Program-made: the position numbers and the translations under genes
In this document: one piece after another, positions 4,933 through 16,256 of the stretch
Position numbering within the stretch: the stretch's first letter is position 1
How the letters are laid out: every line of letters starts with the position of its first letter
Virus record (IMG/VR): IMGVR_UViG_2541047726_000008
From: a virus
Lineage: Duplodnaviria > Heunggongvirae > Uroviricota > Caudoviricetes
DNA length: 20,558 bases
Direction: 5' to 3' (one strand)
The notes under the pieces: model-generated
The model's input: the letters and a program-made list of their open reading frames with translations, nothing else
The model's database searches: none
Told to the model about the DNA's origin: nothing

Positions 4933-5101
4933 GATGGCAGCCTCCGCGATGAATTTGATTAACTCACCACCGAGGTTTTCCACGACCATAAGGGTGGTGA
5001 GACGTACAGGGGTGGAAATACCGGTCATCACGGAACCCGGCCAGCCTTGCGGCTGCCCTGCACGCCCCACCATAATGCGAATGTGGCTGTGCTTAACGCA
5101 T

Positions 5102-5124
5102 AAAAAAACCGCCTGAGCGCGGTT
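5102..5124 (-). terminator. Possible weak intrinsic terminator (minus strand)
   Basis: On the minus strand reads AACCGC-GCTCAG-GCGGTT followed by 7 T. Stem is short (4 GC + 2 AT pairs). Lies upstream of the re-called Rha start, supporting the shorter gene model. Confidence 0.3.
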
Positions 5125-5804
5125 ATGCGCCGTGAATGATTTCGGGTTTCCACGCCCGGCACCCGTTTTATGAGGTGCAGGTGCACTATAATTCCACCCG
5201 TTCTGGTTTTCAATAGCTACATTCAACATTTTCTCTTACCTTTCATCACCGAAGTGAACTTTGTTGATGCGGTGCCTGGTGCCTCCAGGTGACGTTAACC
5301 AGTTAACAATTAACGCCGGATACAGAGAATCCACCCATAACACTGTTTTTGGTTTTAACTGTTCCGCGTGCGCTCAGCCGCATTCACCGCATCACAAAAT
5401 TCACTTTAAAAAGGGCGGCAGAGCAGTCACGGAGTAAAACTGATACCGCCAAAAGTCACCAGAAAATTGATAACAGAGGGCGTTGCAGCGGGGTTGTCAC
5501 TTAAGCGTATGGTCAACCTGACAACCCGGTGTCCTCAACGGGGGAAGGAATAACCCCGCCATACTTACCGCCGCGCCATTTCGCGGATTGCCACAACCGG
5601 AAGCGCACGGTCGACGAAAATTTAACGACAGGCTATCTATGAACCAGCTACCTCGCCGTGCGCTTTCGCGTTATGGTCTGACTTTTCAGGGAAATATCCT
5701 TTCAGTAAACTGTCAGTGCCGGATTCTTATCCGTGTCCGGCGCACGACCACACGCTGTCACGAGAGGTCTCCATTCTCAACCAGTAACCTCAATGGAGGA
5801 TAAA

Positions 5805-13543: not shown

Positions 13544-13884
13544 CGACTTTTACCAGAGAGCAGTTAATAGCTCACGCAGAGGAGACTATTGAAGCACAGA
13601 GACTGTGCATACCGGGCACAATCGACCATGACATCATCCGCACATATAAGATGGATATTGCTGTTCTGGAAATCGCACTGGTATCGCTGGCAGCAGAGCC
13701 AGCCGGTAAATTGCATGAATACAAACCAGTGGGATATCAGCGTCTGGTCGATGAGTTAACCATGCTGGTAAAGCAGTTAACCTGGCAACTGAGGAAAGCG
13801 AAGCCAGACTGCAAATTACCGGATAAGGCGATGAGTTATCTGGAGCGGAACGGACTGATAAGCGTGGAGGATATTTTACGATGA
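13540..13884 (+). CDS. Hypothetical protein (114 aa)
   Basis: ATG at 13540 (ATGA overlap). Opens [15 protein letters not shown]… and shares an …IALxSLxAEP… segment with the preceding small protein. Confidence 0.55.
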
Positions 13885-13964
13885 CCTGGCCTGAAGCATT
13901 AACAACGGTAGGAATTGCGATGGCGGTGGCGCTGGTGGTGTATTCGATTTGCCGCTGGGGATAA
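13881..13964 (+). CDS. Possible 27-aa hydrophobic peptide
   Basis: ATG at 13881 overlaps the preceding stop (ATGA); [27 protein letters not shown] is mostly one hydrophobic helix. Not in the ORF track (short). Confidence 0.25.
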
Positions 13965-13971
13965 AAACGGT

Positions 13972-13999
13972 TTGCGGGAAAAGGAGAGTTAAGTAGAAT
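13972..13999 (+). promoter_or_regulatory. Putative promoter of the hok-like mRNA
   Basis: TTGCGG (13972-13977), 16-nt spacer, TAGAAT (13994-13999). Predicted TSS about 14006, at the start of a segment complementary to the mRNA 3' end. Confidence 0.4.
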
Positions 14000-14039
14000 T
14001 GCAGCGGGTGCTTGAGGCTATCTGTCTCAGGCATGAACA

Positions 14040-14130
14040 CCAAAAGGCAGATAGAGAAAAGCCCCAGTTAACATTACGCGTCCGGCAAGACGCTTAACAT
14101 TAATCTGAGGCCATATCTATGCTCTACACA
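14040..14130 (-). ncRNA. Putative Sok-like antisense RNA (approximate)
   Basis: Inferred from hok-family architecture. Candidate minus-strand promoter TTGCCT (14162..14157), 17 nt, TAACCT (14139..14134) would drive an antisense RNA across the upstream-ORF initiation region. The -10 is weak and the ends are not defined. Confidence 0.3.
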
Positions 14131-14175
14131 CGTAGGTTAGCCTCTTACGTGCCGAAAGGCAAGGAGAAGCAGGCT

Positions 14176-14331
14176 ATGAAGCAGCAAAAGGCGATGCTAA
14201 TCGCCCTGATCGTCATCTGTTTAACCGTCATTGTGACGGCACTGGTAACGAGGAAAGACCTCTGCGAGGTACGAATCCGAACCGGCCAGACGGAGGTCGC
14301 TGTCTTCACAGCTTACGAACCTGAGGAGTAA
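14176..14331 (+). CDS. hok: Hok/Gef-family type I toxin
   Basis: 51 aa, MKQQKAMLIALIVICLTVIVTALVTRKDLCEVRIRTGQTEVAVFTAYEPEE, matching the Hok pattern (…CLT…TRK.LCE.R…G..EVAAF.AYE). AAGGAG 9 nt upstream. An in-frame upstream ATG at 14119 with its own SD extends the frame by 19 codons (mok-like leader ORF). Confidence 0.8.
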   Translation: MKQQKAMLIALIVICLTVIVTALVTRKDLCEVRIRTGQTEVAVFTAYEPEE

Positions 14332-14400
14332 GAGACCCGGCGGGGGAGTAATCTCCCGCCACCTCTGATGTGCCAGGCATCCTCAACGCACCCGCACTTA

Positions 14401-14420
14401 ACCCGCTTCGGCGGGTTTTT
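14401..14420 (+). terminator. Intrinsic terminator of hok-like mRNA
   Basis: ACCCGC-TTCG-GCGGG followed by TTTTT. The identical 20-mer recurs at 16236-16255. Confidence 0.7.
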
Positions 14421-14432
14421 GCATTAGTCTGG

Positions 14433-14496: not shown

Positions 14497-15147
14497 ATGA
14501 ATGAAAATCAGTTAGCTCCTTGTTGGGAATTTCAACCTTATCTTGCTGAAAACTATGTTCGCCACTTGTTGGCGGAGATCGCTAACGTACTTGAGCAGCT
14601 GTACTATCATAAGCACGCATTAGACAGCAACTGGTCTGAAGGTGTAAGGGCTTATGATTGGGTCAGAAATCATCTTATTCAAAATGAAGATGCAATTCCT
14701 GGCCTTGAGATGATTTCCAAGGGGTTGGACTATGTAGTTGCTTTAAATAAAGTTCCGCTACAATTTACCAAAGATTGCATTAATAACCCCAAAAAGAAAC
14801 ATCGTCTGCGTCGAAATAAAGTAGAGTATGAGCAGCTCTCATTGTTTGGTGATGTTGAGGCTGAGCAAGATATTACATGGCGAGTCATAGCTGAGCCTTT
14901 TTTATCCGAAGAGGGCGATGGTGAATTAGAGTCCACACTGCCTCGTTGGGAGGTAGCTCTTGTTGGATTTAATACTTATGGTGCTCAGATTAGTATAGTT
15001 TCTCATCAATCTACAGCATCGATGCCGCTTATGCCTCTTGATTATAACACACTCCCTGACGAAGCGGAGATTAATAAGGTGCCTCTTCGTCGGCGTACGA
15101 AGGATAAAGATTTGGATGTGAGCAGTGATGGAACATCAGGTGAATAA
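14497..15147 (+). CDS. Hypothetical protein (216 aa), first gene of the cargo cassette
   Basis: ATG at 14497 without a clear SD. Visibly AT-rich coding sequence (about one third GC by eye in the first 60 nt). No motif recognised. Its last 20 nt overlap the next gene. Confidence 0.6.
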   Translation: MNENQLAPCWEFQPYLAENYVRHLLAEIANVLEQLYYHKHALDSNWSEGVRAYDWVRNHLIQNEDAIPGLEMISKGLDYVVALNKVPLQFTKDCINNPKKKHRLRRNKVEYEQLSLFGDVEAEQDITWRVIAEPFLSEEGDGELESTLPRWEVALVGFNTYGAQISIVSHQSTASMPLMPLDYNTLPDEAEINKVPLRRRTKDKDLDVSSDGTSGE

Positions 15148-16231
15148 CTTCACTGAGTATCGGGGTGATAAGCTCAAACTAGCGAGAATGGCTGTTGGGC
15201 TTTCTTGTGAAGAGTTAGCCGAAAAAATTGGCAAGACAAAGCAATTCGTTAGCAAACTGGAGAAGGGGTGCAGGCCATCGGAGCAATGTCTTGAGTTAAT
15301 ATCTTCAGCGCTTATGATTAAGTCCAGTTTTCTTTTTACTGAACGAAAATACGCTCTGGAAAGTGATGTCTGCCATTTTCGGAGTAAGAAGTCCAGGACT
15401 CAAACGCTGACTAATAGTGTATTGGCCAGGGCTGAGATTCTTAATATTATAATTTCTGCTGTTGAAGGTGAAATCGAATTTCCTGACGTTAACATACCGG
15501 AGCACCCAGGGGCTGAATTACTTACTCCGAATGATATTGAGCGAGTGGCAGAAGATTGTCGCCGTGCCTGGAATTTAGGTCTTGGCCCTATATCATCAAT
15601 GGTTAAATTGGCGGAGAGTTTAGGGGTAATCGTTGCGCATGTTACGGGAGTCGATGATCGTGTTGATGCTTTTACTGTTCACAATAACAGGCCTGTTATC
15701 ATCAGGAACAATGTTAAAAAAAGCATATGTAGATTTCGCTCTGATTTAGGTCATGAATTAGGGCATTTAGTAATGCATGAGGGCATAACGACAGGTGATA
15801 AACTTACGGAATCACAAGCCGATCACTTTTCGAGCGCCTTATTAGTTCCCAGGTTATCTTTCATTAAAGAATTTCCACGAATACGAGGTAAGCAATTCGA
15901 CTGGAATGCTCTGGTTGAATTTAAACTTAGATGGAAAATCAGCCTTAAAATGTGTATTTATCGAGCCAGCGCATTAGGCTTATTGACCCAGGAACAGGCA
16001 AGAACTGGCTATATGCATCTTAATTCCAGAGGGTATACGAGAGTTGAACCTGGTGATGAACTTTTGCGCCCTGAAGAACCCGGCATGCTGGCCGAGGCGA
16101 TTGAAATGCTGGATGATGCAACCTGGCTAAGAATTCTTATGAAAACTGGCTTGAGCCAAGATTTAATTCGTGAGTTGTTCTCCATCAACAGACCTATTAC
16201 AAATCCAAGAAATATTTTCCAGATTGTTTGA
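15128..16231 (+). CDS. Fused XRE-family HTH / ImmA(IrrE)-type zinc metallopeptidase
   Basis: Track start is GTG 15125; ATG at 15128. 367 aa. N-terminal HTH (LKLARMAVGLSCEELAEKIGKTKQFVSKLEKG) and central HEXXH motif in an ImmA/IrrE-like context (…FRSDLGHELGHLVMHEG…). Confidence 0.8.
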   Translation: MEHQVNNFTEYRGDKLKLARMAVGLSCEELAEKIGKTKQFVSKLEKGCRPSEQCLELISSALMIKSSFLFTERKYALESDVCHFRSKKSRTQTLTNSVLARAEILNIIISAVEGEIEFPDVNIPEHPGAELLTPNDIERVAEDCRRAWNLGLGPISSMVKLAESLGVIVAHVTGVDDRVDAFTVHNNRPVIIRNNVKKSICRFRSDLGHELGHLVMHEGITTGDKLTESQADHFSSALLVPRLSFIKEFPRIRGKQFDWNALVEFKLRWKISLKMCIYRASALGLLTQEQARTGYMHLNSRGYTRVEPGDELLRPEEPGMLAEAIEMLDDATWLRILMKTGLSQDLIRELFSINRPITNPRNIFQIV

Positions 16232-16235
16232 GTAT

Positions 16236-16256
16236 ACCCGCTTCGGCGGGTTTTTT
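16236..16256 (+). terminator. Intrinsic terminator (second copy of the hok-terminator hairpin)
   Basis: ACCCGC-TTCG-GCGGG plus T6. The 20-mer 16236-16255 is identical to 14401-14420. Confidence 0.7.

Follow-up and report, generated by a model that had tools for sequence, protein, structure and literature searches.

A prophage locus that is very probably an intact type I toxin-antitoxin module of the hok/sok family (hokD/hokW type)

The window analyzed here, a stretch of 20,558 nucleotides from the virus record IMGVR_UViG_2541047726_000008, contains at 13972–14421 two overlapping reading frames on the plus strand, a predicted antisense RNA on the minus strand and a series of regulatory elements (Table 1). 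The shorter reading frame encodes the protein MKQQKAMLIALIVICLTVIVTALVTRKDLCEVRIRTGQTEVAVFTAYEPEE, which matches Pfam HOK_GEF (PF01848) over all 42 profile positions with 81.6 bits against a cut-off of 22 (E=2.9e-23) and PHROG 251, 'MokW-like host killing', with 2.8e-33. Comparison of the whole window with Rfam yielded a match to the sok covariance model (RF01794) on the plus strand at 14006–14181, which scores 117.1 bits at a gathering score of 59 (E=1.7e-26) and is full length, as it covers model positions 1–157 of 157 and is not truncated. Many complete E. coli genomes contain the 581 bases around the locus with 100% identity, and RefSeq annotates the coding sequence in them as hokD; 4947 of 5426 genomes have some match to this query (median 2, maximum 11 places per genome). 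In E. coli ABU 83972 (NC_017631, 1180071–1180486), the surroundings of the identical locus are those of a lambdoid prophage and comprise integrase, excisionase, dicB, repressor-like HTH genes, replication genes, DUF968, RusA, the antiterminator (Q) and lysis genes. This setting agrees with the matches to the DicF, C4 and isrK RNAs that Rfam gives elsewhere in the window. The initial annotation had proposed a complete hok/sok-type locus, and this reading is upheld by the Rfam and Pfam matches and the RefSeq hokD annotation as well as by the likeness to phage 933W, the MFE fold and the covariation described below; all the elements it had described are present, either where it had placed them or a few bases away. 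It is thus very probable that a lambdoid E. coli prophage carries at 13972–14421, in its nin region, a type I toxin-antitoxin module of the hok/sok family that is intact and belongs to the hokD/hokW type.

Table 1. Elements of the hok/sok locus and genes of the adjoining cassette, in positions of the window
Feature	Position	Strand	Description
Putative hok/mok promoter	13972–13999	+	-35 TTGCGG (13972–13977), 16-nt spacer, -10 TAGAAT (13994–13999); read from the sequence
Full-length hok (mok-hok) mRNA, predicted	14006–14421	+	~416 nt
tac element (translational activator)	14006–14017	+	GGGUGCUUGAGG; 5' end of the mRNA
ucb (anti-SD)	14059–14065	+	AAGCCCC; partner of the mok SD in the full-length fold, and of tac in the Rfam consensus (proposed for the truncated form)
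Predicted Sok RNA	~14127 to ~14053–14055	-	~73 nt; ends placed by homology
mok SD	14107–14110	+	GAGG; 8-nt spacer to ATG 14119
mok leader ORF	14119–14331	+	70 aa; in frame with hok, common stop codon
Putative sok promoter	14134–14162	-	-35 TTGCCT (14162–14157), 17-nt spacer, -10 TAACCT (14139–14134); read from the sequence
hok SD	14161–14166	+	AAGGAG; 9-nt spacer to ATG 14176
hok toxin gene	14176–14331	+	51 aa, ATG 14176, stop 14331; protein identical to HokD/RelF as annotated
fbi element (fold-back inhibition)	14381–14393	+	CCUCAACGCACCC
Intrinsic terminator of the hok mRNA	14400–14421	+	stem 14400–14417, T run to 14421; terminator scan
RmrT gene	14497–15147		PADLOC PDLC03929, 4.6e-25
RmrA gene	15125–16231		PADLOC PDLC03943, 6.2e-105; Pfam HTH_3 5e-7 (N-terminal), Peptidase_M78 6e-11

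To compare the locus with its relatives, Hok peptide scans of bacterial genomes and of viral contigs (one each) were employed, which delivered 133 loci. From these, 90 distinct full-length mRNAs were extracted in addition to that of the window, and for the analysis of covariation the MFE structure of the window was projected on an alignment of 34 diverse sequences of 72–99% identity, the R1-like plasmid locus included. A 51-aa reading frame of the Hok family and an upstream in-frame leader, each with its own SD, had already been described for this DNA and are confirmed by the Pfam match and by the start codons and SDs listed in Table 1. The ATG of mok lies 57 nt upstream of that of hok, and its reading frame spans the SD and start of hok. 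This start codon is kept in 89 of the 90 distinct loci and the mok SD GAGG does not vary among the 34 homologs. In 69 loci the two start codons are 57 nt apart (in frame); 11 loci have an offset of 56 nt, at which the leader is a 19-codon ORF that ends at the hok start, and 10 loci one of 58 nt. That the mok start is conserved while its frame is free agrees with the conclusion in the literature that the translation of mok, and not the resulting product, is what counts (PMC9841398). The in-frame mok is the commonest arrangement within the clade; an interpretation of it as an unusual trait was ruled out, as 69 of the 90 distinct loci and the annotation of 933W have the same. Since mok is in frame, ribosomes that start at 14119 would make a 70-aa extended Hok; no experimental work on such a product was found in the literature consulted. 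The leader part of Mok was also compared to Pfam, where it did not match DUF5431, the annotation of mok-like ORFs on Klebsiella plasmids that are in another frame. As an observation apart from the gene layout, the motif TACGAA at 14314–14319 (Tyr47 codon) is invariant in 34/34 aligned mRNAs; at this site, A-to-I editing by TadA has been reported for hokD (PMC12214031).

Upstream of mok, a putative promoter can be read from the sequence, and this stretch is identical in phage 933W save one base at 14003. A generic sigma-70 scan reported neither the predicted hok promoter nor the predicted sok promoter, the former because its -35 element matches the consensus at just three of six positions. What the scan did report on the plus strand, TTAACA-18-TATGCT at 14094–14123, is regarded as a chance hit, with 1 found compared to 0.6 expected. 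The mRNA probably starts at G14006, which is located 7 nt past the -10 element, is homologous to the +1 of R1 and is the first position of the Rfam model. This position is more likely than 14001, at which the 5' end had been set before. With this start, and with a 3' end at the terminator as in homologs, the transcript would have the extent given in Table 1.

A central feature of the locus is the complementarity between the 5' end of this mRNA and its 3' segment. Positions 14004–14017 pair with 14381–14395 by 6 bp, a bulged C14387 and then 8 bp, giving 14 paired bases, and 14001–14003 as well as 14396–14397 are unpaired. The initial annotation had seen this complementarity correctly and had given it an extent of 17 nt, which does not hold. 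Since the transcript probably begins at G14006, 12 of the 14 bp would be contained within the RNA. Folding of 14006–14421 resulted in an MFE of -167.2 kcal/mol in comparison to -128.1 +/- 5.6 for shuffled sequences (z = -6.94), and in both the MFE and the centroid structure the first 11 bases of the mRNA are paired with 14382–14393; the long-range 5'-3' pairing for which a fold of 14006–14420 had been suggested as a check is thus present. Between the 5' end and the 3' UTR, the duplex energy is -25.0 kcal/mol versus -18.0 +/- 2.6 for dinucleotide shuffles. By itself the pairing of tac with fbi is just moderately improbable, and one may ask whether two GC-rich stretches match here by chance and have no role. 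Such a reading can point to the 27 of 2000 shuffled 3' UTRs that reach the duplex energy, and to the nearly invariant tac side of the helix, in which 0 of 11 MFE pairs change on both sides. Classical covariation was indeed sought among the 34 sequences and encountered at a single compensatory pair, 12–418, which lies next to the MFE helix and outside it; 28 of the sequences have G-C there, five (Kluyvera) A-U and one G-U. Little classical covariation is seen because tac hardly varies at all: 83 of the 90 distinct mRNAs carry GGGTGCTTGAGG unchanged, the exceptions including five Kluyvera copies with G12->A and a decayed copy (L004) with several changes, and the R1-like mRNA carries GGCGCUUGAGG as tac. 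What speaks against chance is that the helix is paired in 97.9% of cells across the 34 diverse mRNAs, down to ~72% identity, that G-C has changed to G-U at four pairs in addition to the swap at pair 12, and that fbi is highly conserved among related mRNAs with its bulge included. Moreover, the fbi site is the best partner of the tac 12-mer on the whole plus strand of the window (-21.1 versus -17.2 for the next best), and for R1 the tac-fbi interaction has been shown genetically (PMC9841398 and references therein). It is this conservation across homologs that renders the pairing secure and effectively refutes a chance match. The same holds for the fold as a whole, in which 89% of cells are paired in the 34 homologs versus 37–44% when the partner is slid, and changes on both sides are found at 37 of 141 pairs, a number that shuffles (20.2 +/- 2.6) attained in 0 of 500 cases.

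Apart from fbi, computation also brings out an alternative partner for tac as well as a sequestered mok SD. In the full-length MFE structure, 14061–14063 and 14065 of ucb are paired with 14107 and 14109–14111 in the region of the mok SD, just as has been reported for the full-length mRNA of R1 in its inactive state (PMC9841398), and the pairs of helix 5 at columns 72–76 never vary among the 34 homologs. The Rfam consensus structure, on the other hand, pairs positions 1–8 of tac with the AAGCCCC of ucb. When the 3' end was removed in silico, the 5' end folded onto the adjacent 14024–14034, a hairpin that fits the metastable one known from the literature. RNAs truncated to ends at 14360–14380 were folded in search of the switch from fbi to ucb and gave this local tac hairpin instead. 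Hence, the active conformation rests on the Rfam consensus and on the literature, and a tac-ucb switch is compatible with the data.

On the minus strand, a Sok RNA is predicted opposite the start of mok. The annotated sokW of 933W (L137, 1593–1663) maps to 14057–14127 of the window and thereby falls within 14040–14130, where a Sok-like RNA had been suspected on this strand. The predicted RNA folds with -29.7 kcal/mol (z = -5.26) into the canonical tail-plus-hairpin form, with a free 5' tail of 15 nt, a long hairpin and the U-rich 3' end CUUUUCUCU; its tail is complementary to the start codon region of mok and its hairpin to the mok SD. Its expression would, by homology, depend on the putative sok promoter, whose hexamers occupy the place that TTGCGC-17-TATCCT has in the R1-like locus L136 and also agree in position with the homologous site of 933W; the block TAGCCTCTTAC is conserved across the family. 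Compared to the Rfam consensus, the target hairpin contains an insert of 16 nt, GCGUCCGGCAAGACGC, which is a small hairpin in itself and is found in most hokD-type loci, but is absent from hokC-type loci and from a minority of prophage copies.

The regulatory model of PMC9841398, when applied to this locus, suggests the following sequence of events. A weak promoter would give rise to a stable mRNA of ~416 nt (14006–14421), in which tac would pair with the neighboring 14024–14034 during synthesis. Once the mRNA is complete, tac would pair with fbi (14381–14393) and ucb (14061–14065) would sequester the mok SD, and such a full-length RNA would neither be translated nor bind Sok. Slow trimming of the 3' end, as assumed from homologs, would remove fbi, upon which tac could move to ucb and both the ribosome-binding site of mok and the Sok target would become free. 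As long as the prophage is present and transcribed, the short and unstable Sok would pair with the mok start region by means of its free 5' tail, and the duplex would be destroyed, in this family through cleavage by RNase III. If the supply of Sok ended, be it by loss of the element, shut-off of transcription or prophage induction, ribosomes would start at the mok AUG at 14119 and read across the hok start region, the 51-aa Hok would be made and the inner membrane would be depolarized.

The closest tested homolog agrees with such a course. For hokW-sokW of Sp5 it has been established by experiment that both form a toxin-antitoxin pair, since HokW is toxic and sokW, transcribed from its own promoter, neutralizes it; a mutation of the sokW promoter abolished the antitoxin activity (PMC8621323). 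Toxicity of the Hok encoded here would be expected by analogy, although it departs from the tested HokW at 4 C-terminal residues. An intact locus is no guarantee of activity, however, because the chromosomal hokA, hokB and hokC are, as cited in a preprint (bioRxiv 10.1101/2025.08.07.668861), reported to show neither post-segregational killing nor a response to rifampicin. The module could accordingly be structurally intact and functionally silent, a hitch-hiking relic like the chromosomal hok loci of K-12, and the truncated relics among the K-12-type hokD copies (L005, L007, L042) as well as the weakness of both predicted promoters relative to the consensus would suit this idea. We consider it improbable, as all regulatory elements are present and visibly constrained, including the almost invariant tac and the widely kept mok ATG, more than 60 distinct DNA variants encode the same Hok protein and the Sp5 homolog, which like that of 933W shares ~95% DNA identity with the window, is active (PMC8621323). 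Decayed copies, e.g. L004 and L046, look different.

Directly behind the hok terminator, the window harbors a cargo cassette at 14497–16231, which by its profile matches is a RosmerTA (RmrT/RmrA) pair with a predicted role in defense. It sits exactly behind the terminator and closes with a second identical copy of it: the 20-nt ACCCGCTTCGGCGGGTTTTT at 14401–14420 recurs at 16236–16255 with 20/20 matches, and the sharing of a terminator sequence between hok locus and cassette, remarked on in the initial annotation, is therefore verified. In at least 25 cassette-free relatives, the hok terminator is directly followed by the sequence that is found after 16255 here. Other loci carry other cassettes at the same point, namely a different RmrT/RmrA-like pair (L102/L122) or an HTH protein with an M78 peptidase (L068), each of which ends in a second terminator copy followed by the sequence known from the cassette-free relatives. 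The GC content changes from ~0.50 in hok to 0.41–0.45 in the cassette and 0.55 downstream. The site is a moron-like insertion slot bounded by terminator copies, and the hok terminator may serve as a portable junction for promoter-plus-defense-gene cassettes, which would suggest a terminator-guided exchange in lambdoid prophages.

Besides prophage maintenance, the same molecular machine could serve another role, either (a) as an aid to lysis and release upon induction or (b) as an abortive-infection defense against superinfecting phages that shut off host transcription. The first has been proposed for hokW-sokW of Sp5, whose sokW RNA is detected and disappears after mitomycin C, whose HokW rises RecA-dependently and whose phage yield is halved without the locus (PMC8621323). 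For the second, one can cite that the locus directly adjoins the RosmerTA cassette, and that R1 hok/sok lowers the plating of T4, as cited in PMC8621323. Against the defense role, a large survey found hok not to be enriched beside defense systems (bioRxiv 10.1101/2025.08.07.668861), and the Rosmer cassette is absent from most related prophages, so that the adjacency of hok and Rosmer is not a conserved association. The sequence does not discriminate between the roles and the biological role is judged from homologs; a role other than maintenance is assigned a chance somewhat below even.

In the comparison of the prophage copies, we further observed that 14112–14132, the Sok 5' tail and its target, is hypervariable in loci which are nearly identical elsewhere. 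In 63 distinct hokD-type loci with one and the same Hok protein, this segment occurs in 15 variants and has a mean entropy of 0.81 bit versus 0.117 overall, a variability ~7 times that of the remaining locus. If functional, variable Sok tails would make co-resident hok/sok copies mutually orthogonal addiction modules. To see if identical Sok tails are avoided among the copies of one genome, same-genome pairs were compared, of which 7 of 8 differ; since 92% of random pairs differ anyway, this comparison is without power. A literature search on cross-talk or specificity of prophage Sok variants returned nothing specific. The hypervariable Sok tail and the terminator-bounded slot are population patterns that are perhaps undescribed, and that they reflect orthogonal modules and terminator-guided exchange in lambdoid prophages is a tentative idea that we hold to be rather unlikely.

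The locus itself is of an already known kind, an ordinary complete copy and not a new family. The hok/sok family has been known since the 1980s, the phage record of 933W, in which mokW, hokW and the SokW antisense RNA are annotated, dates from 1999 and the Sp5 homolog was tested in 2021; the discovery value is accordingly small. Its value lies in annotation, as RefSeq marks the 51-aa hokD CDS alone and the record is thus devoid of mok, the Sok RNA and the regulatory elements of the mRNA. Many E. coli lysogens carry, in the nin region, a killer module that is probably functional, beside a variable slot able to hold defense cassettes.

Among the characterized systems, mokW/hokW/sokW of the Stx2 phage 933W and the Sakai prophage Sp5 (GenBank AF125520; Takada et al. 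2021, PMC8621323) is closest, with ~95% DNA identity from promoter to fbi as mean column identity of a pairwise alignment; in a search of phage records, 933W was 94% identical over 96% of the locus length. It is likewise located in a lambdoid prophage and is laid out alike, with mok (70 aa) in frame with hok (51 aa) and the antisense sok in the corresponding position; mokW is annotated as a 213-nt CDS that ends at the hokW stop like mok here, and the Sok hairpin has the same 16-nt extension. HokW and the Hok of the window are identical at 47 of 51 residues (92%) and differ in four C-terminal residues (TAYEPEE here, VDYESEK in HokW). Over the early codons of mok and the 5' tail of Sok, 7 positions differ, and so do the terminator, which lacks the ACCCGCTTCGGCGGG hairpin in 933W, and the downstream neighbors.

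Tac, fbi, ucb, mok, hok and a Sok whose promoter lies inside mok are likewise found in the hok/sok (parB) system of plasmid R1, which fits the same Rfam family and works by the same fold-back principle (PMC9841398). In contrast to the prophage locus, it resides on a plasmid, its Hok is only 42% identical, its Sok target hairpin is devoid of the 16-nt insert and its mok, which starts at 116–118, is not in frame with its hok, which starts at 174–176, an offset of 58 (PMC9841398), compared to 57 in the window; the R1-like IncF plasmid copy in our set has an offset of 57 nt. Loci of the hokC (gef)/sokC type (L014, L017–L020) share tac and fbi and an in-frame leader of 69–70 codons, but have a DNA identity of ~75%, a short Sok target hairpin without the insert and a chromosomal rather than prophage-borne location. 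Finally, hokD (relF) of the Qin prophage of K-12 bears the same RefSeq gene name and is identical to the window in its Hok protein, 3' UTR, fbi and terminator. In the K-12-type copies L005, L007 and L042, however, homology sets in only at query position 157 (the hok SD), and in L005 relB-relE lies directly upstream, which is the K-12 arrangement: tac, ucb, the start of mok and sok are missing there. Compared to these copies, the window thus holds the complete form.

The gene pair directly downstream of the hok terminator is, judged from its profile matches and domains, a predicted RosmerTA anti-phage pair. Its first gene is RmrT-like (PADLOC, 4.6e-25), while the second was assigned to RmrA (PADLOC, 6.2e-105) and contains the domains HTH_3 and Peptidase_M78; the GC content of the cassette (0.41-0.45) lies below that of both flanks. 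Identical copies of the hok terminator flank the cassette on both sides (14401-14420 and 16236-16255), and in at least 25 related prophages a cassette-free arrangement is found, in which the hok terminator is joined directly to the sequence that follows window position 16255. The same slot holds two further cassette types: one is a different RmrT/RmrA-like pair, and the other pairs an HTH protein with an M78 peptidase. Each of them is likewise closed by a second copy of the terminator. A -35-like motif, TCTGGTTGACAAA, opens the cassettes of the window and of the related hok loci L102 and L122 and is missing from the cassette start of L068.

Features of the hok/sok region, the related loci and the early-left region (window positions unless a locus is named)
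Feature	Position	Strand	Remarks
RosmerTA cassette	14421-16255		genes 14497-15147 (RmrT-like) and 15125-16231 (RmrA)
Paired terminator copies, L102	2726/4591		
Paired terminator copies, L122	2726/4591		
Paired terminator copies, L068	2726/4074		
16-nt insert	14078-14093		GCGUCCGGCAAGACGC; forms a hairpin of its own
27-aa hydrophobic ORF	13881-13964	+	
C4 antisense RNA	4990-5077	-	Rfam 81.9 bits, above gathering score
isrK	5102-5178	-	Rfam 67.7 bits, above gathering score
DicF	5413-5464	-	Rfam 75.8 bits, above gathering score

Within the hok/sok module, a 16-nt insert makes the Sok-target and Sok hairpin longer than in the Rfam consensus and in plasmid R1. Most hokD-type prophage copies carry it; it is missing in hokC-type loci, and the prophage copies without it are a minority (L123, L133, L085 and L113). 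Among 63 distinct hokD-type loci with identical Hok, variation peaks at 14112-14132 (entropy of 0.81 bit versus 0.117 overall, 15 variants), a stretch comprising the predicted single-stranded 5' tail of Sok and the first codons of the leader ORF mok. Sok-target specificity between co-resident copies may be set here; the Sok tails differ in seven of eight same-genome pairs versus 92% of random pairs, a comparison without statistical power.

All 34 hok mRNAs of the alignment, the R1-like one among them, keep the hexamer TACGAA at 14314-14319, where the Hok Tyr47 codon stands before a G. This is the counterpart of the TadA site of A-to-I editing, with Tyr changed to Cys, that has been reported for hokC, hokD and hokE (PMC12214031).

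At its start, the 27-aa ORF shares an ATGA with the stop of the gene before it, and it ends just 5' of the hok promoter; a Pfam comparison of this ORF gave no match. The C4, isrK and DicF matches lie next to dicB, within this prophage's early-left region.

The mok-like ORF of Klebsiella plasmids, seen on an IncF plasmid (L135, 613-829), carries the annotation 'DUF5431 family protein'. Its frame differs from that of hok, whose annotated start is offset by 97 nt, whereas mok of the window is in frame. In the K-12-type hokD copies (L005, 1903-2656; also L007 and L042), relB-relE is fused upstream. Since their homology to the intact locus starts only at the hok SD, with relB-relE upstream, K-12 hokD is a 5'-truncated relic of the locus found in the window.
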